Below, in pieces: positions 8,419 to 43,199 of a DNA stretch of 58,971 nucleotides. Under the pieces are notes generated by a model, which was not told the origin of the DNA, searched no databases, and worked only from the letters and a program-made list of their open reading frames with translations. The position numbers and the translations under genes were made by a program. This DNA is from an uncultured Gammaproteobacteria bacterium (lineage in GTDB: Bacteria > Pseudomonadota > Gammaproteobacteria > GCA-001735895): the NCBI GenBank assembly GCA_947259305.1, contig CAMYML010000018.1:1-58971 (forward strand). The letters are read 5' to 3'. Within the stretch, counting starts at the first letter, position 1. The number at the start of each line of letters is the position of its first letter.

Positions 8419-10805
8419 AGCTTCCCTAATATCTCCAATCGCTGGTCCACCACTTCCCTGCTGAAGGTCGCGAGTCCATTACCAAAATTATCCAGCGCGC
8501 GCCGATAATACGAAACTGCAACGCGGGGCTGAGAGATATGCTCCAGACTGACCGCCAGATTGTAGGCATAGTTAGGATCGCCTGGATTATTTTCGAGCGC
8601 CCTGAAGTAGTGACCCTGCGCTTCCTGCCAGCGATTTTGCGCACCATAGGCATTGGCTAACGCAAAATTCAGATACGGCGAATCGGGTTCGTCGCGAATC
8701 ATCAGTTTCAACTGCGTTTCGGTATCCTGCGGCGAATAGTTGGCAACCGAGATCAAGGATGCCATCGCCAGCGAATCCTTGGGGTTCGCCAGCAGCACGG
8801 TCTGGTAATCGCGGATGGCGGCTCGGCTGTTATTGTTCTGAACATGGATCGCCGCACGCGCGAGCAAAGCATTTCGACTCTGGGGATCGACCTCGAGCAC
8901 CTTATTGTAAAGACTCATGGCGAGCTCATCATTGCCCGCCTGATAAGCGGCATAAGCTTCACGTAACCAGATACTCTTCTGCTCGACGCGCTGCGTCGAT
9001 GTAATCTCGAGCGTCGACGCAGTCGTCCCGCTATAGGACCCAGCCGCTGCCGGCTGCGCGAGACTTGCAATCTCGGTTGCTGCTTCAGTTTCTATTTTGC
9101 TTTGCGATGGCGTGTCGATGGTAGCGGCCGCTGCTGTCTCGGTCTGGGCGGGTATCGCAGTTGTGTCGCTCGCTGCCGTCGGCGCTGCAGATTCGGCGAC
9201 GGCGCTTTCACCCGTTGCGACAGGCACCGATTCCCCGGCGATGACCCCGCTGTCCGGGACCGAGACCGGCTCACCGCTGGCGTTATCGGCGTTTTGAATG
9301 ATGTCGATGGTACGCTCATCGACTTCGGTCTGGGCAAACAGACTGCCAGCCTGCGGTGCAGTTTCGGGGCGTATGATACCGGGCATCGGGTCGCGCTTGA
9401 GTGGGCGTAAACTGGCATCGATGTTGCTCGATTGATCGTTGTACTCGATCAGACCGTAGACTAAAAGCGCCAGCAGAATCGCAACCGCGATGCCGGTATA
9501 AAACTTGTAATGCTGCAGTCGCTGCGCTGACGATTTGCTGTGAAACACCTTCTTAGCATATTCCGGCGTCATGACGACGTCGGAATCGGATTTCATCCCG
9601 GCAAACAGTTTCGACGCATCGTCGCTCGGCATGCGCATCAGGGTGCGATCGTAATTATCCGGCGCATAGGTGCGTGTCGACGTGGTTTCGGTGCGCGCCG
9701 TGGCGCCGGTCTGGGTGTCGAGCGCAACGCCGGTGGTGGCGCTAGTGCTGGTTTGCGTCTGGCCCGCGGTCGAGGTTGCCTCGGAGGGCATCTGGTGACG
9801 TGTCGTGTCGACCAGCGCAAGGCCATCGTCGCCGCCGCTACCGTCCTGCAATGCCTGTATCTGGTCTTGCCTCAACTGGGGATCGGTTACCGCAGTCGGG
9901 TTGGTCAAATTGGTCTGATCACGCTCAACCAGCAACAGGGACATGTCCTCGGCGTCAGCGTCGGTATCGTCCTCCACTTCGACCATCTGGCTAATATCAT
10001 CGTCAGCCCCTGCCTGCTGCTGGGCCGCTGCGTATTCAAGGTCCGCGACCGAGGCCGGCGGGACGCTGATATCGGTTTCGTCCTCGGCGCTGACCTGGTC
10101 CCTGGAATCGGTTTCATCGTCGACAACCGCCTGCTGCTCGGGTTCCGCTAATTCGTTCAACGGAAAAGGCTGGCTGATATCGGTATCGTCTGCCCGCGCT
10201 GCGAGCTGGCTAAGGTCGGTTTCATCAGCCGCAGTCGGTGCCGCCGCTATCTTGCTGACGTCGGTTTCATCCTCGTGCTGGAGGAGCTGGCTCAGGTCGG
10301 TTTCGTCACCTGCAACCGCTGCCGCCGCCATCTCGCTGACATCGGTTTCATCCTCGCGCTGGGCCAGCTGGCTCAGGTCGGTTTCATCTTCGGGGGCGCG
10401 CTGCTCGCGGCTGACCAGCTGCGGCTCACCCATGAATTCCTCGACATCCTCGTCAGCAAAAATGATCGTTTCATCTTCACCCGTCTGCATTTGCGCACTT
10501 AACGAGGGCACCTCGGTCGTGGTCGTATCGGGGACTTCCAGCCGGGTTTCGGTGCCGTCTTCAGGTTCGACCTGGGTTCGTTCGAGCCGCGTATTGAACT
10601 CGGAATCATCGATTTCGGTTTCATCCCGCAGCGCCCGTTGGGATTGCCGCAGGCTGCTATCCACACCGCCTTCAAGCTCAGAGACATCCTCCGCGGCGGC
10701 AACGATCTCGGTTTCGTCCGACGAACCGGCCTGCGGAGCCTCCTGCTTGTTCTTTTCCGCCTTTTGCTCGGCGGCTTTTTTCAGCGCGTCTAGCAGTAAA
10801 CTCAT
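8415..10805 (-). CDS. Bitopic TPR protein (MshN-like) with a GspB-like N-terminus and a long acidic repeat region
   Basis: 796 aa. The N-terminus MSLLLDALKKAAEQ is GspB/ExeB-like. Residues ~29-286 carry 13 DET(D/E)-type motifs. One TM helix (FYTGIAVAILLALLVYGLIEY) is followed by an Ala/Thr-rich linker and C-terminal TPR repeats (AYAAYQAGN..., ALANAYGAQNRWQEAQGHYFRALE). Confidence 0.75.
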   Translation of the reverse strand: MSLLLDALKKAAEQKAEKNKQEAPQAGSSDETEIVAAAEDVSELEGGVDSSLRQSQRALRDETEIDDSEFNTRLERTQVEPEDGTETRLEVPDTTTTEVPSLSAQMQTGEDETIIFADEDVEEFMGEPQLVSREQRAPEDETDLSQLAQREDETDVSEMAAAAVAGDETDLSQLLQHEDETDVSKIAAAPTAADETDLSQLAARADDTDISQPFPLNELAEPEQQAVVDDETDSRDQVSAEDETDISVPPASVADLEYAAAQQQAGADDDISQMVEVEDDTDADAEDMSLLLVERDQTNLTNPTAVTDPQLRQDQIQALQDGSGGDDGLALVDTTRHQMPSEATSTAGQTQTSTSATTGVALDTQTGATARTETTSTRTYAPDNYDRTLMRMPSDDASKLFAGMKSDSDVVMTPEYAKKVFHSKSSAQRLQHYKFYTGIAVAILLALLVYGLIEYNDQSSNIDASLRPLKRDPMPGIIRPETAPQAGSLFAQTEVDERTIDIIQNADNASGEPVSVPDSGVIAGESVPVATGESAVAESAAPTAASDTTAIPAQTETAAAATIDTPSQSKIETEAATEIASLAQPAAAGSYSGTTASTLEITSTQRVEQKSIWLREAYAAYQAGNDELAMSLYNKVLEVDPQSRNALLARAAIHVQNNNSRAAIRDYQTVLLANPKDSLAMASLISVANYSPQDTETQLKLMIRDEPDSPYLNFALANAYGAQNRWQEAQGHYFRALENNPGDPNYAYNLAVSLEHISQPRVAVSYYRRALDNFGNGLATFSREVVDQRLEILGKL
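9948..10721 (-). repeat. Coding acidic repeat region (DETD[LVI]S-type motifs); the near-perfect ~27-aa/81-bp super-repeat core is at 10173-10391
   Basis: At the DNA level, ggtcggtttcatc / gacRtcggtttcatcctcg units recur about every 40 and 80 bp (for example near 10203, 10251, 10283, 10331 and 10366). In the protein this reads EDETDLSQL..EDETDVS..AAA repeated. Confidence 0.7.
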
Positions 10806-33055: not shown

Positions 33056-34357
33056 ATGCTACAAAATCTGCGAACTTCCACCTGGTTTCTGAGTGGAATA
33101 CTGCTCGGGTTATCACTGGCGGTAGGCCACAGTGTTTACGCTTTAAAGGACGATAACAGCAAGCAGATCCCGTTTGAGGATCTGCAAGCTTTTACCGAGG
33201 TCTTCTCCAAAGTCAAATCCGACTACGTGGAATCGGTTGACGACAAGAAACTGATCGAGGACGCGATCCGCGGCATGCTCAACGGACTCGATCCGCATTC
33301 CGCATTCCTCAACACCAGCGAATTCAGCGATCTCAAAATCGGCACCACCGGCCAGTTCGGCGGGCTCGGCATCGAGGTCGGTATGGAGAACGGTTTCGTC
33401 AAGGTCATTTCGCCGATCGATGATACACCCGCATCGCGGGCAGGCGTGCAGGCCAGCGACCTGATCATCAAGCTCGATGAAAAATCGGTCAAGGGCATGA
33501 CCCTGAACGAAGCGGTCAAGATCATGCGCGGCAAGCCCAACACCGATATCGACCTGACTATCGTGCGCGAAGGCGAACCCAAGCCGCTGGTCATCAATAT
33601 CACGCGTGAAATCATCCGCGTCAAAAGTGTCAAGAATCGCATGCTCGAGCCGGGCTACGGTTATGTTCGCATTACCAATTTCCAGTCACGCACCACCACC
33701 GACCTGCTAAAGGCCATTTCCGATCTGCAAAAGAAAGAACGTCTCAAGGGTATGGTGCTCGATCTGCGTAATAACCCGGGTGGTGTTCTTAACGGCGCGG
33801 TTGGCGTCTCCGACGCATTTATCGATGACGGCCTGATCGTTTATACCGAGGGCCGCCTGGACGATTCCAGCCACCGCTACCTGGCAACCCCGGGCGATAG
33901 CCTCAACGGCGCGCCGCTGGTGGTTTTGATTAACGGCGGTTCGGCATCGGCTTCCGAAATCGTCGCCGGCGCGGTGCAGGATCACAAGCGCGGCATCATC
34001 ATGGGCACCAAGTCATTCGGCAAGGGTTCGGTGCAAACCATCCAGGAACTGCGCAACGGTTCGGCGGTGAAGCTGACCACCGCGCGTTACTTCACCCCGA
34101 ACGGACGTTCGATTCAGGCCAAAGGTATCGAGCCGGACATCAAGCTCTCCACCGTGAAGCTTTCTGATAAAGATGAAAAGGCGCGTGAAACCTATTCCGA
34201 GAGCGATCTCGAAGGGCGCCTGAGTAATCCCAATGGCGAAGGCGACGAGGCCAAGAAAAGCGACAGCGAAACGCTGGCGAAATCTGACTTCCAGCTGTAC
34301 GAGGCGCTTAACCTGCTCAAGGGTCTGTATATCCTCAAAGATATCAGCAACGGCTAA
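33056..34357 (+). CDS. ctpA: Carboxy-terminal processing protease (S41 family, PDZ domain)
   Basis: 433 aa with a signal or TM helix, a PDZ domain (GIEVGMENGFVKVISPIDDTPASRAGV), and S41 motifs LRNNPGG and GGSASASEIVAGA...GTKSFGKGSVQ. Confidence 0.92.
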   Translation: MLQNLRTSTWFLSGILLGLSLAVGHSVYALKDDNSKQIPFEDLQAFTEVFSKVKSDYVESVDDKKLIEDAIRGMLNGLDPHSAFLNTSEFSDLKIGTTGQFGGLGIEVGMENGFVKVISPIDDTPASRAGVQASDLIIKLDEKSVKGMTLNEAVKIMRGKPNTDIDLTIVREGEPKPLVINITREIIRVKSVKNRMLEPGYGYVRITNFQSRTTTDLLKAISDLQKKERLKGMVLDLRNNPGGVLNGAVGVSDAFIDDGLIVYTEGRLDDSSHRYLATPGDSLNGAPLVVLINGGSASASEIVAGAVQDHKRGIIMGTKSFGKGSVQTIQELRNGSAVKLTTARYFTPNGRSIQAKGIEPDIKLSTVKLSDKDEKARETYSESDLEGRLSNPNGEGDEAKKSDSETLAKSDFQLYEALNLLKGLYILKDISNG

Positions 34358-34368
34358 CCAGCGGCCCG

Positions 34369-35154
34369 ATGTTACGCTTCTGGTTGAGCCTGCTTGCGCT
34401 ATTGGCGACCGGCGCCGCAGCGGATCAGCGTCCGGCTTTATCGCTGGTCATCGACGATCTCGGGTATTCACTGGGAAACGGCATGGCGGCCATCGATCTC
34501 GACGGCGATCATACCTACGCCATCCTGCCGGGCGCGGCATACAGTCGCAAGCTGGCCCGGCATGCGCACGAACTAAACAAGGAAGTCATCCTGCACCTGC
34601 CGATGCAATCGATCAGTTCCGGGGCTGCGCACGAGCCGAATGCGCTCAACGAGGCAATGGATGAAGATCAGCTCACGGCGAACGTGCATTCGCTGCTGGC
34701 GGAGATTCCATTTATCCGCGGCGTCAACAACCACATGGGCAGCCATCTGACCGAGTTCGATTTTTTCATGCGCCCGGTGATGGACAGCATTCGCGGTTAC
34801 AATCCGCGACTTTATTTTCTCGATAGCCGCACGTCGCCGCGCAGCGTGGCGTACGCGCAGGCGCTGGATGCCGGTCTGAATTCGATTTCGCGCGACATCT
34901 TCCTCGACAATGAACCCAATCCGGAATCGATACGGCTACAGTACGACATCTGGCTGACCAAGGCGCGCGCGCTTGGCTCGGCCATCGCCATCGGTCATCC
35001 CTATCCGAATACGATTGCGGTATTGCGGGAAAGCCTGGGCGAGACCAACGCTGATTTCAGATTCCTGCGCCTTTCAAGCCTGATCGACGAGCGCAAATCA
35101 GCGGGATTGTCCGCCGGCAAAATAACCACTACGACAACTGTGCTCAGGCAGTAA
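34369..35154 (+). CDS. Divergent polysaccharide deacetylase family protein (YibQ-like)
   Basis: 261 aa with a signal peptide. Motifs LSLVIDDLGYS, YAILP, ILHLPMQ, NNHMGS and FLDSRTS are typical of YibQ. It follows envC and ctp, as in enterobacterial synteny. Confidence 0.8.
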   Translation: MLRFWLSLLALLATGAAADQRPALSLVIDDLGYSLGNGMAAIDLDGDHTYAILPGAAYSRKLARHAHELNKEVILHLPMQSISSGAAHEPNALNEAMDEDQLTANVHSLLAEIPFIRGVNNHMGSHLTEFDFFMRPVMDSIRGYNPRLYFLDSRTSPRSVAYAQALDAGLNSISRDIFLDNEPNPESIRLQYDIWLTKARALGSAIAIGHPYPNTIAVLRESLGETNADFRFLRLSSLIDERKSAGLSAGKITTTTTVLRQ

Positions 35155-36546
35155 TTAAATCGGCGGCGGCCTAAAACCACCCATCAGGGTTTCAACCTGT
35201 TGCGCCAGCGCCAGCGCGATATCTTCACGCCAGGGGGCGGCGATCAATTGCACTCCGACCGGTAATCCTTCGGCACTGGTGCCAGCTCGTACCGATACCC
35301 CTGGCCAGCCGAGCAGGTTATGAATCTGATTGTAACCCCAGTCGTCGAAACTATCGTTATGCGAAGCCCGATGCGGTCGAGCGATAGCAAACGAAACCGG
35401 GCACAGAATGGCATCGTAGTCGGCAAAAAACCCGAGCGCCTGGCTGCGGGCCTCGTCGATCGCTTCGACTAGCGCCGGGTCAAGCTGGTTGGCGCTGGCA
35501 ATGCCCTGCTCGGTCAGGTAACCGCGCAGCTCTTCCCCGGGTTGTTCGGTGCCATGGCGTTGCAGCAGCCGCATAATGAAACCCGCGCTGGTCGCTTCGC
35601 GAAACTCGGTAGTCAGATCGACCAGCTGTCGCGTCTGCGGCAAGAGTTTTTCTTCGAGGTTAAAACCCGCGACGCGCAACGCCTTTGCGCTGGCGGTGAC
35701 CACGCGCTGAATATCGTCGACCGGGGTCACGATGCCATTATCGGCGTACCAGGCGATACGCAACTGCGAGACATCGACCGACCGCGGGTCACCCATCGGA
35801 ACCGGCACCACGGCAGGGTCACGGCCATCCGGGCCGCAGATCAACGGCAGGGCCAGGCTCAGATCTTCGACGTAGCGCGCCATCGGCCCGATCTGGGTCA
35901 GCGAATCCAGCACCCCCCCGGCATAGGGCACGATATGCCCGGTTCGCGGCGTACGCCCCGAGGTCGGCTTGATTCCGGCAATGCCGCAGAGATGCGCCGG
36001 CTCGCGAATGCTGCCACCGGTGTCCGACCCCAGTTCCAGCGCGGCGCCGCCGCAGGCGATGATTGCAGCCGAGCCGCCGCTACTGCCGCCGGGGCTGCGT
36101 TCGAGGTCGAAAGGATTACAGGTACGGCCATAAATCAGGTTGTTGGTTTCGCCGCTGAAGGTCAGTTCCGGGGTATTGGTTTTACCGAGCAGTACCGCGC
36201 CGGCGGCACGCAGGCGCGCCACCACCGGGGCATCCTGATCCGGCAGAAAATCCTTGCGCCCGAGGGTGCCGCCGGTGGTAACAATGTCGGCGGTATCGAG
36301 CGAATCCTTGATCGTAATCGGCACCCCGTGCAGCGGACCCCTGAACTGTTCATGGGCCGCCATCCGGTCGAGCTCATCGGCTTCTCCGAGCGCGCGCTCA
36401 GCCACCAGCTGCACCACCGCATTGATGTCGGGATTGACCTGCTCGATACGTTCGAGGCAGGCTTCGACGATTTGCCGGCAGGAAAGCCGTGCGTTGCGGA
36501 TTTCGCGCGCGATCCGGCGCGCGGACCAGTAGATAGCATCAGACAT
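35155..36546 (-). CDS. Amidase-signature (GatA-like) amidase
   Basis: 463 aa. It carries the catalytic Lys context VPITIKDS and the signature GGSSGGSAAIIA. It starts 18 nt downstream of the kinase gene. Confidence 0.88.
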   Translation of the reverse strand: MSDAIYWSARRIAREIRNARLSCRQIVEACLERIEQVNPDINAVVQLVAERALGEADELDRMAAHEQFRGPLHGVPITIKDSLDTADIVTTGGTLGRKDFLPDQDAPVVARLRAAGAVLLGKTNTPELTFSGETNNLIYGRTCNPFDLERSPGGSSGGSAAIIACGGAALELGSDTGGSIREPAHLCGIAGIKPTSGRTPRTGHIVPYAGGVLDSLTQIGPMARYVEDLSLALPLICGPDGRDPAVVPVPMGDPRSVDVSQLRIAWYADNGIVTPVDDIQRVVTASAKALRVAGFNLEEKLLPQTRQLVDLTTEFREATSAGFIMRLLQRHGTEQPGEELRGYLTEQGIASANQLDPALVEAIDEARSQALGFFADYDAILCPVSFAIARPHRASHNDSFDDWGYNQIHNLLGWPGVSVRAGTSAEGLPVGVQLIAAPWREDIALALAQQVETLMGGFRPPPI

Positions 36547-36564
36547 GATGCAATTATGGTTATC

Positions 36565-38076
36565 TCAATCCTGATTATCCAGCCTTGATTTGGCCGTCTC
36601 GAAGTAGGCGACGAACTCGACCCCGCGCACATCCAGCGGCGAGAACACCAGTTTAGAAGAACGTTTTCTGTTCCTGACATCGAGCACCCAGCGCGGTAAC
36701 CGGGGCTCGGCGGTATCGAGATGGAGGTTATCCTCGCCGGCACGCAGCTCGGAAATCAGCTGCGGTTTTCTGCTGGCCTGAGGACTGGCCTCGATGCTGG
36801 CAATCGGCGCCTCGTAGGACCATTCCTGGCGCTTGCCGGCCTGCGCCTCCGAGGCCTCGAGCCGGCACATCGGCCGGCCATTGACGATGACGATTTCGAG
36901 TTCGTGTTTATGCACTTCGCCATTGGTGAGCTTGACGCTGAGCGCAAAACTGCCAGCGCGGTTGTCGATATTGTCGAACTCGATCGAGCCCTCGAAACCC
37001 TTGGTGATTTCGTTGACAAAGTACAGGCCCAGGCCCTTGCCGTGATGCTCGCGAATCCGGCGCGACGAAAATCCGAGCTGGTAAATCTTGTCCTTTTCAT
37101 CCTCCTTGATGCGCGGGCCGCGGTTATAAACCCTGAACTCGACCTCGCCGCCGCGCTGCGCAAGCGAAATAGCGACCCGGCTGTAACGGTTGCGGTGCGC
37201 CTTCTGCTGCGAGTAAAACAGCGCGTTATTGATCAGGTTTTCAATCAGTAACACCATGTGGTTTTCGTTGCCGAGCATTTCGCTATCGCTGCGCAACTGG
37301 ATACTGAACTTGTCATCGGCATAGCTGCCACGCCCTGGCCAGTCCTGGTTGAGCCCGAGTTCGTCCGGATTTTCGGTTATCGGCAACAATGCACGCCGCA
37401 GCGCATGACTCATCATGAAGGTCGGTTCGAACGGCGCCGGCTCGATGTCGTCGTTGAGCTGCGCCTGGAAGAAATGCTCTTCGCAATCGTAGATCTGGTT
37501 GGCGACATGCAGCGCGATATTATCGGTGGTCGACAGATCCAGTAGATCCCACAGGTACAGCAGGCCATCGGCGGCTTCGCGATACTGCTGTTTTTCGCCT
37601 GGCTCGCAGGCTTGCTGCGCGTTCCTGAGCGCGGTCTGCGCCTTGTCGTAACTGATGACGCCATTGTGGCGTACTTCCGAGGCAATATTTTTGAAATGCA
37701 GGAATTTTTCATCGTACTCGATGGTTTCCAGCAGGCGTTCGCTGATAAACATTTTCAGTTTGTCGGCGTGATCGGAATAGGTGCGCGCGCGCGTGCCGAG
37801 TTCGCGTTTCGAATCGAACAGTTCGCTGATCTGCTCCTGGTATTGCCGCAGCTGTGCGCGGTAACGCCGGCTTGCCCTGGCAAAGCGCCAGATATCGAAA
37901 ATCACCAGTAACAGCAACAGCGCGGCGGCGGGCAGCACCGTGTCCTGCCGCTGCAGCGGCGCGGGCAGGCGCTCGAGCCTGAACAGATCGGCATTGGCGA
38001 GTGCGAATTGCCAGACGATAAACGCTATTGCGCCCAACATGCTAAACCAGGGGTAGTAGATACGCGCCGATTTCAT
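36565..38076 (-). CDS. Atypical sensor histidine kinase / GHKL ATPase (intramembrane-sensing topology, C-terminal extra domain)
   Basis: 503 aa. Two N-terminal TM helices are joined by an ~18-aa loop. The N-box (LIENLINNALFYS), a G1-like box (YNRGPRI) and G2 (GKGLGLYFV) are present. I could not see a canonical HisKA H-box. About 130 aa follow the ATPase domain. It overlaps the regulator gene by 4 nt. Confidence 0.7.
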   Translation of the reverse strand: MKSARIYYPWFSMLGAIAFIVWQFALANADLFRLERLPAPLQRQDTVLPAAALLLLLVIFDIWRFARASRRYRAQLRQYQEQISELFDSKRELGTRARTYSDHADKLKMFISERLLETIEYDEKFLHFKNIASEVRHNGVISYDKAQTALRNAQQACEPGEKQQYREAADGLLYLWDLLDLSTTDNIALHVANQIYDCEEHFFQAQLNDDIEPAPFEPTFMMSHALRRALLPITENPDELGLNQDWPGRGSYADDKFSIQLRSDSEMLGNENHMVLLIENLINNALFYSQQKAHRNRYSRVAISLAQRGGEVEFRVYNRGPRIKEDEKDKIYQLGFSSRRIREHHGKGLGLYFVNEITKGFEGSIEFDNIDNRAGSFALSVKLTNGEVHKHELEIVIVNGRPMCRLEASEAQAGKRQEWSYEAPIASIEASPQASRKPQLISELRAGEDNLHLDTAEPRLPRWVLDVRNRKRSSKLVFSPLDVRGVEFVAYFETAKSRLDNQD

Positions 38077-38879
38077 TTCGATTTATCGCCGGGCGGGCTC
38101 CACAGGTAGGCGCCTTCGTCACCGAAAGTAACGATACCCGCGCCATTGTTGCACAGCTCGGTAAAGCGGCCCTCGCCTTCCTCGGCCGCATCGAAGGCCC
38201 GCCGCAGCGTCTTGATGTGCTGCCGGTAGCTGGCGTAGGAAAATTTTTCCGGATCGAGATCGAGACGCTCGGCGATTTGGCCCGCGGTCAGCGGACGCGG
38301 TGAAGACTGCACCAGTTCGCGCAGCAGCTTGCGCGGGGTCGGCGCCAGCGGTCGGCGCGCATTGCTCGGATTCATCAGGCGCTGCCCTTTCCAGTAGACG
38401 TTCCAGGTATTCAGGTCGATCGTCAGTTCGCCGCTATTCACCACGTTAATGGTTGCGGACAGGTCTGAATCGATCGAAACCTGTCTGAGCACGGCCTTGA
38501 TGCGCCAGCACAGCACCTGCTCGACGTTATGCTGATGCTTGGCGATGAAATCGGTGGCCGAAAACTGTTCCAGTGCTTCGCGCTCGATCTCGGTGCCGCT
38601 GTGTTCCGACAGGTAAATAATGGGCAGGCGCGGCCACTTCTTGCGCAGCGCGTTGGAGACCGTGAAGCCGGCCTGATCGTTACCGTTCATACGCGCGTCG
38701 AGCAGCGCCACATCAGGCGGGGATTCCTTGTCGGTGAGCGCGATCTTTTGCCGCGCGGCCTCGGCAAAATTCAGGATCGTCAACGAATTCGGCTTACCGT
38801 CGAAGTCTTCTTTCTCCAGCACCGGGGAGAATTTCTTGATCCAGTGCGATTGGTCTTCGACCCAGAAAATGGACGCCAT
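38073..38879 (-). CDS. OmpR/PhoB-type response regulator (REC plus winged-helix domains)
   Basis: 268 aa. The REC domain has IFWVEDQ, the acceptor VALLDARM, YLSEH and FIAKH. The C-terminal part (ELTIDLNTWNVYWKGQRL...LTAGQIAERL...HIKTLRRAF) looks like trans_reg_C. Confidence 0.8.
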   Translation of the reverse strand: MASIFWVEDQSHWIKKFSPVLEKEDFDGKPNSLTILNFAEAARQKIALTDKESPPDVALLDARMNGNDQAGFTVSNALRKKWPRLPIIYLSEHSGTEIEREALEQFSATDFIAKHQHNVEQVLCWRIKAVLRQVSIDSDLSATINVVNSGELTIDLNTWNVYWKGQRLMNPSNARRPLAPTPRKLLRELVQSSPRPLTAGQIAERLDLDPEKFSYASYRQHIKTLRRAFDAAEEGEGRFTELCNNGAGIVTFGDEGAYLWSPPGDKSK

Positions 38880-39015
38880 CAGTAACCCGGCTGCTTTGTG
38901 TTGACCATAGATTGTAAGTATACAGCGGCCCTGATGAACTACCGTTTGCCTCTCCGGAATGTGAAATATTTCTTAGTAAAGGATATTTATTAAAAATTTT
39001 AGCTGTTTTACCCCG

Positions 39016-39034
39016 TTTTTCACCAATTTTTCAC
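39016..39034 (+). promoter_or_regulatory. Direct repeat TTTTTCAC-N3-TTTTTCAC (11-bp phasing); candidate response-regulator operator overlapping a -35 position
   Basis: The repeats are at 39016-39023 and 39027-39034. An inverted GTGAAA lies at 38961-38966. A TAGAGT -10-like hexamer lies at 39045-39050. All sit in the divergent intergenic region between the regulator gene and the AT-rich cassette. Confidence 0.3.
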
Positions 39035-39084
39035 AGCCCCTGCATAGAGTCCAGATTACATTTAACGAAGTTGAGGTTAGGCCC

Positions 39085-39255
39085 ATGTTTATCGAAGTAT
39101 TTAGAGCCTGGTCAATGGTATTAGCCATGTCTGTCGCCATCTGGCATAGCGCAAGTATCGCCAGGCGCTATGGCTGGAATATGGGTAAAAACGCCTTTTC
39201 CCTGCAATATTGCTCGATACTCAGAATCCCGAAAAGTGACAATTACCCACTATAG
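39085..39255 (+). CDS. Small hypothetical membrane peptide (56 aa)
   Basis: It is below the ORF-track size cutoff. A GAGG RBS at 39073-39076 sits 8 nt before the ATG. The product is MFIEVFRAWSMVLAMSVAIWHSASIARRYGWNMGKNAFSLQYCSILRIPKSDNYPL, with one hydrophobic helix. The call is speculative. Confidence 0.25.
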   Translation: MFIEVFRAWSMVLAMSVAIWHSASIARRYGWNMGKNAFSLQYCSILRIPKSDNYPL

Positions 39256-39338
39256 GATTGCCGAGACAGCCTGGTTTTCCAGCGAAAGGCATCTATTCTC
39301 TACTATTCACAACTACTTATAAGATTAGGAAGATAACC

Positions 39339-40739
39339 ATGAACAATCTTTACTTTTTACCAGAAATGCCTGGCGTTTCGATCGCAGTCTGGATAGTTGC
39401 GAGCATGGTTTTCCTGTTTTTGGCCAGGGAACCGGTACACAAAATGATTCAGGCATTTTCCGACGCCACCGCGGGTGGTTTAAGAAAACTGGCCGAATGG
39501 ACAAAAACTACCGCGCAGGCCATGCGCGAAAAAGACAGAAAAGTCTTGTTGGAATCCGGGGTTGCCAAGATTCAGGGCGAAATCCTCCAGGAATTCACCA
39601 AAATCGAGATGGCCAATACCAAGAGCCTGGCCGGGTACCCCAAGTTACAGTTAAAGCTCGACGACAACATCAGTCAGATCGAGCGCGACTACAAGGAATG
39701 CGGGCAGGTAACACCCGAAGCGCCTGGATGGAGTGAAGTCATCGAAAGTATCGGCAGGGCGCAGGGTTCGACCTCTGACCGGATTATCGAAAACATGCTG
39801 TCTGAAATACACAAGTCAGCGGTCGACGGGGAAAAGAAAGCGCTGTCTGAATTTCGCGACGTCGCGGCAAAACGCCACAAGATACTAGGCTCGATGGCGC
39901 CGGTCTGGAAGCGCGTCGAGAAACTGGGCAAGGAAATCAATAGCCAGGTCGAAAAGGTCATGGAAAACGGTCGTAATATTGAAAAATACATGGCCCGCTA
40001 CGAAAAAATTTCCGCCGCCGAACCCGAATCGATTGATATGCTTTCGTCGAAAGTAACCAAGTTGTTCATCATTTCACTGATTGTTATTTGCGTCGGACTG
40101 GTGGGCGCATTCATCAACTTTAACCTGATTGCGCTGCCCATGTCCGAACTGGTACCCGCCGGGGTACGAGTCGCCGGAATGGCGGTATCGGAAGTATCGG
40201 CGCTGGTTATTGTCGCGCTTGAACTGGTCCTGGGCATATTCATGTTTGAAGCGATCGGCGTGACTCACACCTTCCCGCAAATTTCGAATATGACCCGGGG
40301 TAAGCGCAAAATCATCCTGTCTGGATGCCTGCTTGGGCTTTTGTTCCTGTCTACCGTCGAAGCATCGCTTGCAATCCTGCGTGAAAATCTGGCCGAGGCC
40401 AAAACGGCGCTGGACATCAGTCTGGCTGGAGAATCGGCAACGGTTATCGACAACGTCAACTCAAAAATCACCCTGATTGGACAAGCATTGCTGGGTTTTG
40501 TGCTGCCGTGGATACTGGCGGTAATCGCAATTCCGCTGGAAATGTTTATCGAGGCCAGCCAACACGCCTTCGCCAAGATATATACCATGCTAATCACCCT
40601 GCTCTGCCATCTGGCCAACGCGATCGCGTACCTGGTAGAAGGGTTTTTTAATATCCTGTCGCACCTGTTCGACATCTACATCATCATTCCCGTACAGATC
40701 GCCAACATGTTCACCGGGAAACGGGTTAGCGCAAGCTAA
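39339..40739 (+). CDS. Polytopic membrane protein with a large K/E-rich coiled-coil domain, function unknown
   Basis: I trimmed the start to the ATG at 39339, preceded by an AGGAAG RBS 7 nt upstream; this gives 466 aa. Layout: TM1 (VSIAVWIVASMVFLFLA), a ~225-aa soluble helical region, then 4-5 TM helices. I did not recognise a family. Confidence 0.7.
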   Translation: MNNLYFLPEMPGVSIAVWIVASMVFLFLAREPVHKMIQAFSDATAGGLRKLAEWTKTTAQAMREKDRKVLLESGVAKIQGEILQEFTKIEMANTKSLAGYPKLQLKLDDNISQIERDYKECGQVTPEAPGWSEVIESIGRAQGSTSDRIIENMLSEIHKSAVDGEKKALSEFRDVAAKRHKILGSMAPVWKRVEKLGKEINSQVEKVMENGRNIEKYMARYEKISAAEPESIDMLSSKVTKLFIISLIVICVGLVGAFINFNLIALPMSELVPAGVRVAGMAVSEVSALVIVALELVLGIFMFEAIGVTHTFPQISNMTRGKRKIILSGCLLGLLFLSTVEASLAILRENLAEAKTALDISLAGESATVIDNVNSKITLIGQALLGFVLPWILAVIAIPLEMFIEASQHAFAKIYTMLITLLCHLANAIAYLVEGFFNILSHLFDIYIIIPVQIANMFTGKRVSAS

Positions 40740-40754
40740 CCAGGGGAAGATAAG

Positions 40755-41426
40755 ATGGAAAAGATATTAAAGCCTGTTTTGTTTGCAGTATCGATAGTGG
40801 TGGCCGTTTCAGCCTGTTCCGATAGCAAGAAATATGAAACATCCTATTGTACGCTGGCCGATATATCCGGCACCTACGCCGGTGAAAAGGCCAGCGTGGT
40901 CAAGATAATCAAGGCCGGCATAGTGCCGGAAATGATTCCCGGCGACAGCCTGTTCTTCATCAAGATCGACAGCAACAGTTATGCGGAAGAAAACCTGGTA
41001 ACGAAAATGACCCTGGATTACAGGCCGACGACGGCGAACAGCCAGAAGCTGGCCATCGCAAAAACGCTGGACGATTTTGGCAGAGGCAATGCCAGGTCCA
41101 GGCTGACCGATATCAGCGGCGCATTAATGCTTTGCTCCGATTATCTGAAATCGACACAATCCGGAACCCAGGTAATGTTCGTTTTCAGCGATATGAAAGA
41201 AGAACTGCCATCGGGCGTGGTACGCAAGTTTACCGAGGATGAGTTTGCGGGCATCGACATCGTTGCCATGAATGTCATCAAGCTCAACAAGGACAGCTCG
41301 AATCCGGAAGTCTATCGCAAGCGGCTAAAATCCTGGAATGAGCGCATTATCAATTCCGGCGCCAGAAGCTGGCAAACCATGATCGACGCGACCAAGATAC
41401 AGGAATTTATTTATCAAGTTAAATAA
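40755..41426 (+). CDS. Lipoprotein with vWA-like motifs, function unknown
   Basis: 223 aa. A lipobox is present (VAVSAC|SD). There is a MIDAS-like DISGT, then TDISGALMLCSDYL and VMFVFSDMKEE, in the usual vWA spacing. A GGGGAAG RBS is present, and the gene starts 15 nt after the previous stop. That it is a CDS is fairly safe; the vWA assignment is tentative. Confidence 0.6.
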   Translation: MEKILKPVLFAVSIVVAVSACSDSKKYETSYCTLADISGTYAGEKASVVKIIKAGIVPEMIPGDSLFFIKIDSNSYAEENLVTKMTLDYRPTTANSQKLAIAKTLDDFGRGNARSRLTDISGALMLCSDYLKSTQSGTQVMFVFSDMKEELPSGVVRKFTEDEFAGIDIVAMNVIKLNKDSSNPEVYRKRLKSWNERIINSGARSWQTMIDATKIQEFIYQVK

Positions 41427-41475
41427 CCGCTCCCCCATGGTTAATTGATAATAACCTGCCTTTTCATGTTGCACG

Positions 41476-41499
41476 CCCCGCGCAAGCGGGGGTTTTTTT
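41476..41499 (+). terminator. Rho-independent terminator of the membrane-protein/lipoprotein operon
   Basis: CCCCGC (41476-41481), loop GCAA, GCGGGG (41486-41491), one G, then T7 (41493-41499). Confidence 0.75.
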
Positions 41500-41550
41500 A
41501 CCTGGGAGCCGCATGACGGGACCCGGGGCGCAGCCTTTGCCAGCAGCCAG

Positions 41551-41841
41551 TTGGTGGGCGCCTATAATGCGTTGCTGGAAGGCGCTCTCCGGCAACTCGA
41601 ACAATGCCCCGCGTTTGCCGGCATCTCGATCAAACGTCTAGATATCTTCCGCATTCTCAACGACATATCGGCAAATCCCGGCAGTTTCGGTATCAACGAA
41701 GTCGAGTCGGCCTGTCTGAGTTTCGGCGTCATCGAGGTCCATGGCGGTGAGATCTGGCTTGAGTCCGATGGTCCAGGGCACGGCAGTACCCTGTCTTGTT
41801 ACCCTTGCGGACGCGGAGCAATTCGCCGTCGGGCAGCATAA
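41551..41841 (+). pseudogene. Chimeric gene remnant: SGNH/GDSL-lipase internal fragment joined to a histidine-kinase C-terminal fragment
   Basis: AYNALLEGALRQL...LDIFRILNDISANPGSFGINEVESAC resembles the conserved block of GDSL esterases just before their catalytic C-terminus. It is followed directly by IEVHGGEIWLESDGPGHGSTLS, the G2/C-terminal end of HATPase_c. Neither part has its N-terminal portion. Confidence 0.45.
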
Positions 41842-41936
41842 AGATCCGATAGTGAGCACTTAACCTGACCCAGATCAATGTTCCTTTTCCTGGAACAGGT
41901 AAAAACGCTGCTTACACGACCACTTGAGGATAGACG

Positions 41937-42152
41937 ATGGCCAGAACAATCAGACAGCAAATTCTCAGATGCCCGACCCGCAATCGCGATGTCGAGGTGT
42001 CCTATATCGCTTCCGGCCGCTGGTTCGCAACCCGGTACGAAATAGTGTCCTGCCCGAGCATGTTCGATGGCCCGGGAAGCTGTCACCGGCAGTGCAGCCC
42101 GCTGTTGTCGCGCCCGTCGAATTTCATGTCACAGGCCCTGACCCGAATTTAA
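41937..42152 (+). CDS. Small Cys-containing hypothetical protein (71 aa)
   Basis: A strong GAGGA RBS at 41926-41930 sits 6 nt before the ATG. Four Cys are present (CP...CP...CHRQC), which could form a zinc ribbon. I did not recognise a family. Confidence 0.35.
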   Translation: MARTIRQQILRCPTRNRDVEVSYIASGRWFATRYEIVSCPSMFDGPGSCHRQCSPLLSRPSNFMSQALTRI

Positions 42153-42199
42153 AACGCCGCGATGCCGCAGCGTCTCCCTTCCGCCAGAGAATCCCGTAA

Positions 42200-42540
42200 T
42201 CTTCAGCGATCGAACCAGGACGACTATCCATAAAACTGCCTTGCCACGGCATCGACGGCGTTGGTGAGAATTACAGCCAGCAGGCACTGACCGACAAGAA
42301 TTATTTCATGGCGCCCGCGCTTGACGCGTCCGCACATGCCTGGCACCACAGCGACGCGGGCCTGGTGAAATCGATACGCGAGGGATCGCCTCGCACAAAG
42401 CGCATGGCGGCATGGCGGCATGGCAAGAAGCTGGCGTCAGCGCCGAGGATGCCGCCGACCTGGTGGCCTATATCAAGAGCCTGTGGACCCAGCGCGAGTT
42501 CGACTGTCAGGGTCCGAAACACATGCAATGCATGCAGTAA
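42200..42540 (+). pseudogene. Class I cytochrome c remnant: 5'-truncated and frameshifted by an 8-bp tandem duplication
   Basis: Frame 1 reads ..KLPCHGIDGVGENYSQQALTDKNYFMAPALDASAHAWHHSDAGLVKSIREGSPRTKRMAAW. It has no start codon, no signal peptide and no first Cys of CxxCH. After GCATGGCG x2 (+GCATGGCA) at 42402-42425, the natural C-terminus QEAGVSAEDAADLVAYIKSLWTQ...* continues in another frame. Confidence 0.55.
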
Positions 42541-42584
42541 CGGTTATCATGACGGGTATCGATTCAGCGAACTACGAGTAGAGC

Positions 42585-43199
42585 ATGTTTTACAAGACTA
42601 GCGAACACCATGGCCTGCCGCATAATCCATTCAAAAGTTGCGTCGCGCCGCGACCCATCGCCTGGGTGAGTTCACTTCATCCCGACGGCACGATAAACCT
42701 GGCGCCCTACAGCTTTTTCAACGCGCTCACCAGCGACCCGCCGATGGTGATGATCTCCTTCAACGGTTACCACGAACACGGCGGCGAGAAAGATACGCTT
42801 TACAATATAAAGGCCTGCGGCGAATTCGTGGTTAACATGGTGCCGCTGACCCTCAAGGACGCGATGAATGTCACCACCGCCAACCTGGCACATGAAGTCG
42901 ACGAGCTCGCGCTGGCCGGGCTTAGCACCGAGGATTCGCAACTGGTCAAACCGCCGCGCGTCAAGGAATCCCCGATACACCTGGAATGCGAATTTTTTAA
43001 AGAGATCCAGCTACCCTGCACCCTGCCAGACAGTATCAATACGATGATCATCGGCAGCGTACTCGGGGTGCATATCAGCGACGAAGTGCTGGTCGACGGC
43101 CTGGTCGATTTATCCCGCATCAAGCCATTGGCGAGGCTTGGCTACATGCAATACACCTCGGTCGACGAGTTGTTTGCCATGGCACGCCCGGACGACTGA
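42585..43199 (+). CDS. Flavin reductase-like (FMN-binding split-barrel) protein
   Basis: 204 aa. FKSCVAPRPIAWVSSLHPDGTINLAPYSFFNALTSDPPMVMISF is the typical flavin_reduct domain core. Confidence 0.85.
   Translation: MFYKTSEHHGLPHNPFKSCVAPRPIAWVSSLHPDGTINLAPYSFFNALTSDPPMVMISFNGYHEHGGEKDTLYNIKACGEFVVNMVPLTLKDAMNVTTANLAHEVDELALAGLSTEDSQLVKPPRVKESPIHLECEFFKEIQLPCTLPDSINTMIIGSVLGVHISDEVLVDGLVDLSRIKPLARLGYMQYTSVDELFAMARPDD

Follow-up and report, generated by a model that had tools for sequence, protein, structure and literature searches.

A two-gene envelope module of a polytopic membrane protein and a predicted vWA lipoprotein in an exchangeable slot beside a two-component system of an uncultured gammaproteobacterium

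The stretch of DNA analysed here, referred to as the window, comprises 58,971 nucleotides of contig CAMYML010000018.1 from an uncultured Gammaproteobacteria bacterium (assembly GCA_947259305.1). The locus of interest includes the following genes and features:

35155-36546, minus strand: amidase-signature enzyme (PF01425), whose gene closes the RR-HK operon in this clade
36565-38076, minus strand: histidine kinase (HK) with two N-terminal transmembrane (TM) helices and a HATPase_c domain
38073-38879, minus strand: response regulator (RR) with a REC domain and a putative winged-helix output
39016-39034, plus strand: direct repeat TTTTTCAC-CAA-TTTTTCAC in tandem (period 11 bp), putative site of the neighbouring OmpR/PhoB-type RR
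39038-41499, plus strand: the whole exchangeable A-type cassette, with its left breakpoint between 39038 and 39060
39045-39050, plus strand: TAGAGT, candidate -10 hexamer of P1, a putative RR-dependent promoter, 10 nt past the second repeat
39085-39255, plus strand: small ORF (56 aa)
39290-39302, plus strand: conserved element CATCTATTCTCTA with a -10-like TATTCT, 46 nt 5' of the mem ATG
39339-40739, plus strand: membrane-protein gene (A-type, mem; 466 aa), with AGGAAG ahead of the ATG
40755-41426, plus strand: lipoprotein gene (223 aa)
41476-41499, plus strand: intrinsic terminator and right-hand cassette end, CCCCGC-GCAA-GCGGGG followed by T7

The small ORF, mem and the lipoprotein gene are divergent from the RR, HK and amidase genes, and the terminator that follows them has an all-GC 6-bp stem, a 4-nt loop and a run of seven T residues; these coordinates agree with the original prediction of a three-ORF cassette, divergent from a two-component/amidase operon and closed by a clean terminator. 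The cassette had also been described as more AT-rich than its surroundings, and the computed profile gives a G+C content of 0.497 (49.7%) for positions 39085-41499 versus a mean of 0.563 (56.3%) for the window. When G+C is taken over 2.4 kb at a time (SD 0.023), values as low as that of the cassette appear in 0.7% of the intervals, all of them overlapping the cassette locus, which is the lowest-G+C 2.4-kb stretch of the window. On the other hand, the supposed preference for A/T-ending codons did not hold: the GC3 of mem and of the lipoprotein gene is 0.63-0.64 (z -1.5 and -1.3), the average over 48 window ORFs being 0.70 (SD 0.05), and G/C-ending codons are still the majority. Much of the G+C deficit lies in GC1 (0.52 and 0.45 versus 0.60).

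The product of the last gene carries the signal MEKILKPVLFAVSIVVAVSAC and a VSAC lipobox that fits the pattern [LVI][ASTVI][GAS]C, with a Cys21 that is invariant in all relatives, two of which match LPAM_1; the +2 residue is Ser/Thr. The motifs DISGT, TDISGAL and FVFSDMKEE are present, and the MIDAS residues D36-x-S38-x-T40, T118 and D146, invariant in alignments of 42 and of 61 relatives, are found at the loop positions expected for a vWA domain. The AlphaFold2 model (pLDDT 88.2) shows a single compact domain with the strand and helix order of a vWA domain, predicted as beta1-alpha1-beta2-beta3-alpha2-alpha3-beta4-(loop)-beta5-alpha5-beta6-alpha6, and a linker of only about 7 residues between Cys21 and strand beta1. 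A Foldseek search of this model against the PDB gave 85 matches at E<=1e-3, and the top-ranked ones are all vWA domains (probability 1.0, E down to 3e-6, TM-scores of the predicted model against PDB entries up to 0.56/0.71); the matches include CMG2, the integrin alpha2 I domain, ITIH1, CaV alpha2delta-1, NorD and 4jdu, an aerotolerance-related membrane protein of B. fragilis. By sequence, the Pfam model VWA_2 did not reach its gathering score (E 0.025, 15.7 bits versus a cut-off of 27), weak VWA_2 matches were obtained in 26 of 61 relatives (best E 0.0041), and a profile search against PDB sequences found nothing; two relatives carry the NCBI name "VWA domain-containing protein". The protein is, on predicted fold and motif, a divergent vWA domain with a MIDAS, as had been proposed from its motifs. 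It would share with integrin I domains the fold order and the metal-site residues at the canonical loops; in contrast, it scores below the VWA_2 cut-off, has a Thr instead of a Ser as the fifth MIDAS residue and a loop in place of helix alpha4, stands alone as a lipoprotein of about 200 residues, and its family shows two extra invariant motifs, PGD and IDS-x-SY.

The 466-aa membrane protein was expected to consist of TM1, a charged K/E-rich helical domain and further hydrophobic helices, and this layout was borne out. According to the AlphaFold2 model (pLDDT 91.7) and the positive-inside rule, a short N-terminus lies outside and is followed by TM1 and a cytoplasmic helical hairpin of about 210 residues; after six further hydrophobic helices, the C-terminus is again in the cytoplasm. 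The predicted helices of the hairpin span residues 30-98, 100-121, 131-141 and 147-225, and the domain (residues 30-240) has 22% K+E and 32% charged residues. The family-averaged number of K+R per segment is 0.22, 0.69 and 1.74 for those proposed to be periplasmic versus 3.03, 2.08, 3.33 and 3.39 for those proposed to be cytoplasmic. A predicted periplasmic loop, N260-F-x-L-I-A-x-P267-M-x-E270, is conserved, with E270 kept in only about 74% of 89 members. In an analysis of 89 members, several residues in or at the ends of the TM helices are conserved: position 304 (E304) is acidic in all 89, position 309 (T309) is T or S in all 89, E401 is kept in 78 and D445 in 84. The conserved polar residues gather on the cytoplasmic side, and no obvious pore lining is formed.

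The family to which this protein belongs includes 494 cluster representatives at E<=1e-3, that is, approximately 500 clusters at 50% identity, from Gammaproteobacteria, Myxococcota (where it is abundant) and other groups. Gutless worms harbour a sulfur-oxidising symbiont, Gamma 3, that carries the family, and so do free-living relatives of this symbiont in sediments; among cultured bacteria, the family is found at least in Exilibacterium tricleocarpae. Searches of Pfam, NCBIfam, PADLOC, PHROG, PDB sequences and Foldseek databases returned no relative of the window protein, nor did 89 members share any consistent Pfam or NCBIfam family. The best match among PDB sequence profiles (E 0.002) was a GPCR by chance, and the best Foldseek values (E 0.079 in the PDB and 0.012 in BFVD) were coiled-coil noise. 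Membership in the MotA/ExbB/TolQ type or in other known membrane families was considered and rejected, given that no curated model or solved fold matched. The lipoprotein also had no match in PADLOC or PHROG, so that the suggested link to a known defence system found no support, and the view that neither protein could be assigned to a characterised system stands.

The region carries a chromosomal two-gene envelope module, made of a polytopic inner-membrane protein and a vWA/MIDAS lipoprotein. In every GTDB-derived locus of Gammaproteobacteria and Myxococcota with a contig that extends far enough, the membrane gene is immediately followed by a lipoprotein homologue, and the same adjacency, with 4-bp overlaps, was seen around relatives of 20-24% identity. 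There is also a natural fusion, P0256 (685 aa), found on two contigs from two sources, in which the membrane protein is followed by a hydrophobic anchor preceded by KRK and by the vWA domain. This fusion speaks for an inner-membrane location of the lipoprotein. In E. coli, a Ser/Thr at +2 directs lipoproteins to the outer membrane; by this rule, the lipoprotein would be at a distance from its partner, whose periplasmic loops are short.

The neighbouring two-component system (TCS) is formed by an RR with a Response_reg domain (PF00072, E 7.5e-10, above the cut-off) and an output domain that falls short of the cut-offs of Trans_reg_C (E 3e-4, 21.2 bits versus 26.2) and HTH_20 (26.5 bits versus 27), and by an HK in which HATPase_c (E 2.5e-13) is the sole domain detected, with no recognisable HisKA; H103 is located within the invariant block TYSDHADKLKMF. 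The TM helices of the HK cover approximately residues 12-28 and 47-63, and the periplasmic loop between them, NADLFRLERLPAPLQRQDTV, read directly from the sequence, has about 20 residues. With two N-terminal TM helices, a short loop and no other input domain, this protein would be an intramembrane-sensing kinase. The third gene of the operon encodes a cytoplasmic amidase-signature enzyme (PF01425, E 6.5e-108), and a cell-wall amidase was rejected as its identity. This gene is found in the loci of the crown clade and is missing from distant loci that carry the TCS and the pair (L147-L168); the amidase is probably an accessory and not a core part, and a role for it in the envelope found no support.

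The module and the TCS next to it are conserved together as one genomic unit. Among 80 metagenome loci retrieved with the kinase, 24 have an A-type pair, 28 a B-type pair, 2 have none (with just one side assessable in both) and 26 were not assessable; therefore, of the 54 assessable loci, with kinase relatives down to 40% identity, 52 have the kinase next to a pair, in three different gene arrangements, and the RR of all the kinase-seeded loci is 56-94% identical. Nevertheless, this linkage is not universal: the pair stands alone, with no adjacent TCS, in Myxococcota, Thiohalomonadaceae, Exilibacterium and one sister gammaproteobacterial clade, and most members of the pair family have no kinase beside them. 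It follows that the pair has a function of its own, which a model based on signalling does not name.

The second line of evidence comes from the intergenic region. The TTCAC tandem repeat, with its 11-bp period, occupies the place of the -35 box, and a weaker third copy is located at 39005-39012. The repeat is invariant across an alignment of 14 RR-bearing loci; its exact form is present in 12 of 85 loci, each with an RR or an RR trace, and missing from about 65 loci that lack the RR. All 51 assessable kinase-seeded loci have a relaxed form, T[TC]AC-N6-TT[TC]AC, upstream of the membrane gene (background 0.071 per kb), also when the pair is placed downstream of the kinase and is not divergent, and this form is kept at 40-47% kinase identity. 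In the window, the TTTTTCAC-N3-TTTTTCAC arrangement, 10 nt upstream of TAGAGT, has the direct repetition, the period of about 11 bp and the -35 overlap of a predicted OmpR/PhoB-type regulator site. All the aligned A- and B-type loci have TAGAGT, TAAAGT, TAAATT, TAGATT or TACATT at an equal distance from the repeat, from which we infer that TAGAGT is the -10 box of the RR-dependent promoter P1. The neighbouring TCS very probably controls the promoter of the cassette. The repeat might also serve the autoregulation of the divergent RR operon, yet it travels with the membrane gene where the arrangement is non-divergent. Given that kinase relatives are almost always beside a pair and that the repeat is upstream of the membrane gene in every assessable case, the cassette and the two-component operon are, as judged from these genomic patterns, most likely one functional unit; this proposal was thus sustained for the kinase-linked lineages, and not for the clades in which the pair stands alone.

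Another characteristic of this locus is that the slot is dimorphic. In this clade, backbones that are 94-96% identical carry either an A or a B cassette, with proteins only about 32% identical between the two types. Aligned with the B-type loci L092 and L122, the window ceases to match at 39038 and 39059, respectively; with A-type relatives, the nucleotide match lasts up to 41499 and restarts at 42586. The A-type locus L123 and the B-type locus L125 have flanks that are 96% identical on both sides, and between them lie cassettes of 2.8 and 2.7 kb that cannot be aligned; the pairs L106/L107, L112/L113 and L090/L092 break exactly at the tandem repeat. A and B types are interleaved in the kinase tree, and B remnants are found downstream of the A pair in L006. 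The G+C content of the B pair equals that of its flanks, whereas that of the A pair is 5-9 points lower. The element CATCTATTCTCTA occurs at -42 to -59 both in A-type loci linked to a TCS and in the sister clade that has none (L015-L029), was not found in B-type or other clades, and is probably the ancestral proximal promoter of the A cassette, P2. These alignments establish, at the level of sequence, that an A-type cassette with its own putative proximal promoter displaced an ancestral B-type cassette at the kinase-controlled slot, and that both types still segregate on near-identical backbones.

The small ORF bears a trace of this event. The DNA alignment with B-type loci spans its ribosome-binding site, its ATG and codons 1-20, and the similarity ends past ATCTGGC; at the protein level, the product in the relative L009, MFTEIIKAWSTVPGITAALW, was set against the B-type N-terminus, MFNEILTVWSSQPGISATIW. 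Judging from this alignment, the first 20 or so codons are the relic 5' end of the displaced B-type membrane-protein gene, and the remainder is found in the A-type cassette only. The variability by codon position is 0.34/0.31/0.46, and the frame is broken in L014 and L018 and absent from L021, L126 and L140. The ORF may still be translated; nevertheless, with such an origin, such losses and a product of only moderate hydrophobicity, its description as a small membrane peptide is doubtful. With respect to the foreign origin proposed for the cassette, a discrete replaceable segment with breakpoints at approximately 39038-39060 and 41499 did displace a compositionally native B cassette. However, the event is old and common to a whole clade, the incoming cassette is a paralogue from within the family, the G+C content of the pair follows that of the host from 38% to 71%, and neither 72,556 plasmids nor 50,697 phage records yielded a homologue.

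Taken as a whole, the best explanation is probably, although by no means surely, a previously undescribed, kinase-controlled envelope signalling unit with a reporting or effector pair. Phylogenetic footprinting suggests that the RR would bind the tandem TTTTTCAC repeat in lieu of a -35 box and activate P1 in the manner of PhoB, and all three ORFs of the cassette would then be expressed. The charge bias would place the C-terminus and the helical domain of about 210 residues of the membrane protein in the cytoplasm; this bias, the lipobox and the fusion are consistent with a vWA domain held on the periplasmic face of the inner membrane, in a complex with its partner. The MIDAS metal ion could bind an acidic ligand, either a residue of the partner loop N260-F-x-L-I-A-x-P267-M-x-E270 or an envelope component, and the complex could report to, or reset, a kinase that has almost no periplasmic domain, act as a protective effector, or both. 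The logic would be that of SaePQ-SaeRS and BceAB-BceRS.

The closest working analogue would be SaePQRS of Staphylococcus aureus, where the lipoprotein SaeP and the membrane protein SaeQ owe their expression to a promoter that depends on SaeR, an OmpR-family regulator, and has two binding sites for it; both proteins join the intramembrane-sensing kinase SaeS in a ternary complex (PMC5083920). Both loci have a kinase with almost no extracytoplasmic domain, adjoining genes for a lipoprotein and a polytopic membrane protein, and a pair promoter with direct-repeat regulator sites, self-induction being a property of Sae and putative here. In contrast, SaeP and SaeQ have 146 and 157 aa, the latter with 4 TM helices, and show no detected or expected sequence relation to this pair, in which the lipoprotein is of the vWA/MIDAS type and the membrane protein has 466 residues and a 210-aa cytoplasmic helical domain; moreover, the host is Gram-negative and the genes are divergent instead of forming one operon. 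The parallel is one of genome and promoter, and an action of the pair on the kinase is putative.

Other intramembrane-sensing kinases, such as those of BceRS-BceAB and LiaFSR, need an accessory membrane partner that is also their target. The likeness to these systems lies in a kinase without a sensor domain that adjoins a conserved membrane-protein target operon, a linkage that holds over deep divergence; the cassette differs in that it has no ABC transporter, LiaF, PspA-like protein or ATPase, and a dependence of sensing on the pair is putative. A membrane-tethered extracytoplasmic vWA/MIDAS domain paired with a polytopic membrane protein recalls CaV alpha2delta and the vWA proteins BatA/BatB of the aerotolerance-related operon of Bacteroides; nevertheless, the partner is unlike any channel, and no Bat/MoxR-vWA genes (MoxR AAA+, DUF58, TPR) are linked in this clade, either among the called neighbours or among the clustered flanking ORFs. 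A TPR gene ahead of the pair was seen in one Myxococcota clade only.

Several other readings of these data have to be weighed. The pair could be an autonomous envelope effector, such as a channel or transporter with a lipid-anchored vWA auxiliary subunit, comparable to alpha2delta in CaV channels, or a membrane-stabilising complex, that does not talk back to the kinase and for which the TCS is just a switch in some lineages. The family members without an adjacent kinase, the conserved acidic and polar residues within TM helices or at helix ends (E304, T309, E401 and D445), alpha2delta-1 among the lipoprotein matches and the proximal promoter element retained by the A cassette all agree with such an effector; against it, the membrane protein resembles no channel or transporter family in sequence or fold, its conserved polar residues lie on the cytoplasmic side instead of lining an obvious pore, and a kinase without its own sensing domain nearly always adjoins a pair. 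We regard this reading as rather unlikely. Somewhat further out is the idea, which we hold as speculative, that the RR, the HK, the 7-TM protein and the vWA lipoprotein are a widespread, undescribed, integrin-like "outside-in" signalling machine: the periplasmic MIDAS would capture an acidic ligand and the signal would pass through the long cytoplasmic helical domain of the 7-TM partner to the sensorless kinase, while the two alleles of about 32% identity would be under balancing selection, exerted for example by phages, bacteriocins or host factors for which the complex is a tool or a target.

The discreteness of the cassette, its sharp breakpoints, its lower G+C content and the A/B dimorphism on backbones of 94-96% identity, interleaved in the kinase tree, could also be read as marks of a cassette for defence or conflict, directed at phages or toxins and acquired horizontally, with deeply divergent alleles under diversifying or balancing selection. 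This is quite improbable, considering the negative PADLOC, PHROG, plasmid and phage searches, the compositional match between pair and host, and the lack of mobile-element genes flanking the cassette in the window; besides, in L006 the membrane protein is as conserved as its housekeeping neighbours (93% identity versus 89% for CtpA). The possibility that the lipoprotein is exported to the outer membrane or the surface as a MIDAS adhesin, with the membrane protein aiding its export or anchoring, has a precedent in CglB of Myxococcus, a vWA outer-membrane lipoprotein adhesin (PMC9946355). The abundance of the family in Myxococcota and the Ser/Thr at +2 of a vWA/MIDAS lipoprotein, an outer-membrane sorting residue by the E. 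coli rule, would fit this role; nonetheless, in the natural fusion the vWA domain is kept tied to its partner in the inner membrane, the predicted linker after Cys21 is very short, and no Glt/Agl-type or secretion genes are linked, which leaves a surface adhesin as a most improbable reading.

To our knowledge, few partners of sensorless kinases are known, i.e., BceAB, LiaF and SaePQ. These kinases need partners, and the kinase-controlled signalling unit favoured here would add a new and widespread one, formed by a vWA/MIDAS lipoprotein and a membrane-protein family with no description in any database. Since the cultured bacterium E. tricleocarpae carries the family, genetics is feasible. The locus also offers a natural experiment, in which two cassette alleles of about 32% identity are placed behind the same promoter in near-identical genomes, and this two-allele slot makes partner specificity and the selection that acts on envelope modules directly testable.

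The cassette at 39085-41499 of the window consists of three open reading frames (ORFs) on the plus strand, followed by a terminator, and is divergent from a minus-strand operon encoding a response regulator (RR), a histidine kinase (HK) and an amidase-signature enzyme; ORFs, strand, divergent operon and terminator are all as originally predicted. Its elements, together with the upstream repeat, are the following.

39016-39034: TTTTTCAC-N3-TTTTTCAC repeat, invariant in the intergenic region; putative RR-binding site
39085-39255, plus strand: small ORF of 56 aa
39290-39302: proximal element CATCTATTCTCTA, retained by the A-type cassette (that of the window)
39339-40739, plus strand: membrane protein of 466 aa
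40755-41426, plus strand: vWA-like lipoprotein of 223 aa, which forms the pair with the membrane protein

The original prediction held that the cassette and the two-component system (TCS) may form one functional unit. When the surroundings of the pair are considered, RR, HK and amidase genes are adjacent to it in a single monophyletic clade, which includes the window, and from this side alone the linkage looked weak. The kinase-side view was obtained by a metagenome scan seeded with the kinase alignment, which returned 80 loci. An A-type pair, 80-95% identical to that of the window, is present in 24 of these, and a divergent pair (B-type) at the same slot in 28; two loci, assessable on one side only, show no pair, and 26 loci were too short to judge. 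The B-type membrane protein and lipoprotein are 31.9% and 33.9% identical to their counterparts in the window, with the vWA metal site (MIDAS) intact. Kinases with as little as 40% identity still show the linkage, which extends over three different gene arrangements. The pair is linked to the TCS elsewhere, and the 52 kinase-seeded loci that carry it, as well as the conserved repeat upstream of the membrane-protein gene, support the proposal of one unit. We conclude that the cassette is a conserved target of this TCS and, plausibly, its accessory. Beyond its two transmembrane helices and the loop of approx. 20 residues between them, the kinase has no input domain. Among parallels, SaePQRS is documented best: its lipoprotein SaeP and membrane protein SaeQ are expressed from a SaeR-dependent promoter that contains two SaeR-binding sites, and they join the intramembrane-sensing kinase SaeS in a ternary complex (PMC5083920).

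After the repeat, at a distance of 10 nt, comes a conserved TAGAGT-like hexamer, a candidate -10 element; judged from the sequence, this layout is that of a putative PhoB/OmpR-type activator site in place of the -35 box. A relaxed form of the repeat occurs upstream of the membrane-protein gene in all 51 assessable loci (background, 0.071 per kb), and is also kept in loci whose pair follows the kinase in the same orientation; it was not found in loci without the regulator. The CATCTATTCTCTA element is common to the cassette of the window and to the A-type pairs of a sister clade that lacks the TCS. Upstream of the membrane-protein gene, this gammaproteobacterial sister clade shows GTGA-N6/7-TCAC sequences (e.g., GTGAATTTATTCAC in locus L024), and several myxococcotal or deltaproteobacterial loci (L074-L083) have a CRP/FNR-type palindrome at 70-100 nt, perfect as TGTGA-N6-TCACA in L078, L079, L080, L081 and L082. 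These palindromes suggest a different regulator where the TCS is absent.

Another aspect of the slot next to the kinase is that its two occupants are exchangeable. In the loci L123 (A-type) and L125 (B-type) both flanks are 96% identical at the DNA level, and the 2.8 and 2.7 kb enclosed by them are unalignable; in three further A/B contig pairs homology ends exactly at the repeat. Kinases linked to A-type and to B-type pairs are intermixed at several levels of the kinase tree, and the A-type membrane proteins found at the kinase slot are monophyletic. Locus L006 carries, just 3' of an intact A-type pair (10169-10611), B-type remnants that correspond to residues 219-276 of the membrane-protein gene and residues 100-197 of the lipoprotein gene, the latter 82% identical; these remnants are a fossil of the displaced cassette. 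The simplest history is that the resident B-type pair of the kinase-controlled slot gave way to an A-type pair that brought its own promoter, and that since then both forms have survived or been passed between relatives.

This history bears on the foreign origin that had been proposed from base composition. The G+C content of 39085-41499 is 49.7% versus 56.3% for the window, the lowest of any 2.4-kb stretch in it and approx. 2.9 SD under the mean, so the AT-richness, originally a visual impression, was confirmed by the computed profile. The supposed preference for A/T-ending codons was wrong, given a GC3 of 0.63-0.64 (mean of 48 ORFs in the window 0.70, SD 0.05); much of the codon-level deficit resides in first codon positions, i.e., in amino-acid composition. 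B-type pairs have the G+C content of their flanks, and A-type pairs lie 5-9 points under theirs. Recent horizontal transfer as the cause was rejected in that form, since low G+C is common to the whole A-type clade. Searches of plasmids and phages by tblastn did not find homologues. Foreign origin is therefore right in a limited sense, as an old displacement by a paralogue, and not as the arrival of an unrelated mobile system.

Homology of the window to B-type relatives stops at 39038 and 39059, and to A-type relatives at 41499, so that the predicted limits of the cassette nearly coincide with real recombination boundaries. Beyond the terminator, the window has approx. 1.1 kb without an intact gene (41500-42585) that is missing from A-type relatives, in which approx. 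300 bp separate the terminator from a flavin reductase gene. Within this segment, ORF 41551-41841 was considered as a relic of a kinase C-terminus; this was rejected by comparison with locus L130, where a secreted GDSL/SGNH esterase (343 aa) of which the ORF retains a C-terminal part is intact 3' of the pair. A second ORF, 42412-42540, is similar to the C-terminal end of a c-type cytochrome (Pfam E 0.055). On the other side, the cassette and the TCS adjoin a conserved envelope cluster (33056-35154) of M23 peptidase, CtpA (S41) and YibQ-like divergent polysaccharide deacetylase; the same synteny in relatives implies that the whole RR-HK-amidase-cassette block was inserted between yibQ and the flavin reductase gene. 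An Rfam scan of 38700-41700 gave zero matches, and in a search for transcripts the cassette sequence was found on metagenome contigs only.

The small ORF shares with the B-type membrane-protein gene the ribosome-binding site, the ATG and approximately the first 20 codons, after which they diverge. It is open in 11 of 14 aligned loci, with a conserved motif, [KR]-R-[YFH]-G-W...A-F-x-L-x-Y, and with the highest variability at third codon positions (0.46 vs 0.34 and 0.31); as far as sequence tells, it may be translated. L014 has a frameshift in it, L018 a disrupted copy, and L021, L126 and L140 lack it; it is not a core part of the cassette.

The core is the pair itself. In 80 loci of species-representative genomes, from Gammaproteobacteria and many Myxococcota, the lipoprotein gene is directly 3' of the membrane-protein gene, the sole exceptions being contigs that end too early; among the gammaproteobacterial carriers are the Gamma 3 endosymbiont of Olavius algarvensis (95% identity), Thiohalomonadaceae and Exilibacterium, of which E. 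tricleocarpae R142 (L052) is cultivable. Relatives at 20-24% identity have a small downstream gene with a 4-bp overlap; of two such genes, one is a clear lipoprotein homologue and the other is very divergent, without the MIDAS motif. In the most distant member examined (L086 6001-8138, 20% identity), the next gene overlaps by 4 bp and encodes a 241-aa lipoprotein, which aligns only weakly to the vWA family (hhalign probability 23%) and has IHYGGLPG in place of DxSGT; it may represent a MIDAS-less branch. Besides the pair, no neighbours are conserved beyond single clades. A TPR protein of approx. 212 aa (TPR_19 E 5e-10; weak TPR_Slam) is encoded directly upstream on the same strand in 14 Myxococcota loci (within L056-L073) and may be a clade-specific third component there. 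A natural fusion of 685 aa, P0256, was found on two contigs from two sources.

L169 1925-3982 and L170 2169-4226: P0256, B-like membrane protein fused to its vWA lipoprotein

In P0256 the membrane protein is followed by a KRK-preceded hydrophobic anchor with a lipobox-like end, and then by the vWA domain. This fusion argues for a physical complex of both proteins; it also fixes a cytoplasmic C-terminus for the membrane protein and puts the vWA domain on the periplasmic side of the inner membrane. The flanking genes of P0256 encode a MauG-type peroxidase and a PadR regulator, and its surroundings lack a two-component system.

As originally stated, neither protein could be assigned to a characterised system: in Pfam, NCBIfam, PADLOC and PHROGs no curated family scored above threshold for the membrane protein and 89 relatives or for the lipoprotein and 61 relatives, the latter giving a weak VWA_2 signal only, and the small-ORF product, scanned as well, had no match; the PADLOC scan showed no link to a known defence system. 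Sequence-profile searches of the PDB with both proteins gave chance matches only. The membrane-protein family is large, with 494 cluster representatives at 50% identity and many full-length matches down to approx. 20%. Its AlphaFold2 model is confident (pLDDT 91.7), and Foldseek against PDB and BFVD returned no significant neighbour, only coiled-coil noise with TM-scores of up to 0.27. Averaged over the family, K/R are scarce in the short loops 267-287 and 348-378, and abundant in 308-324 and in the flanks of the helical domain (approx. 210 residues); this charge bias agrees with the fusion and places the helical domain in the cytoplasm. The alternative of a coiled-coil stalk that extends through the periplasm to a lipoprotein in the outer membrane was rejected on the short-loop bias and the fusion protein.

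In the lipoprotein model (pLDDT 88.2), strands and helices follow one another as in a vWA domain. Among its 85 PDB matches at E<=1e-3, the top-ranked are vWA domains, namely CMG2, the integrin alpha2 I domain, ITIH1, CaV alpha2delta-1, a B. fragilis aerotolerance-related membrane protein and NorD. Residues D36, S38, T40, T118 and D146, at MIDAS positions, are invariant among relatives, two of which NCBI already names "VWA domain-containing protein". The vWA reading is upheld by these matches, residues and names, even below the Pfam threshold. In the O. algarvensis endosymbiont (L010, DS021199.1) the lipoprotein gene carries a 1-nt deletion in the T-run of the signal-peptide region (9416-9460, GTTTT-TTTGC), so gene callers start the protein late (190-210 aa); either the old assembly has a sequencing error here or the gene is decaying in the symbiont. 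Between its ctpA and yibQ genes, L010 also carries two IS/transposase genes that the window lacks.

The vWA fold and the accessory-protein logic are of known kinds. Literature searches gave no description of such a membrane-protein/lipoprotein pair, and in the literature searched the membrane-protein family, the four-gene unit, the conserved box and the dimorphic slot are undescribed. From context, topology and analogy, the mechanism that we favour as a hypothesis is that the regulator would activate an inner-membrane complex of membrane protein and lipoprotein, whose periplasmic MIDAS domain and cytoplasmic helical domain would link an envelope cue to the kinase, to protection or to both.
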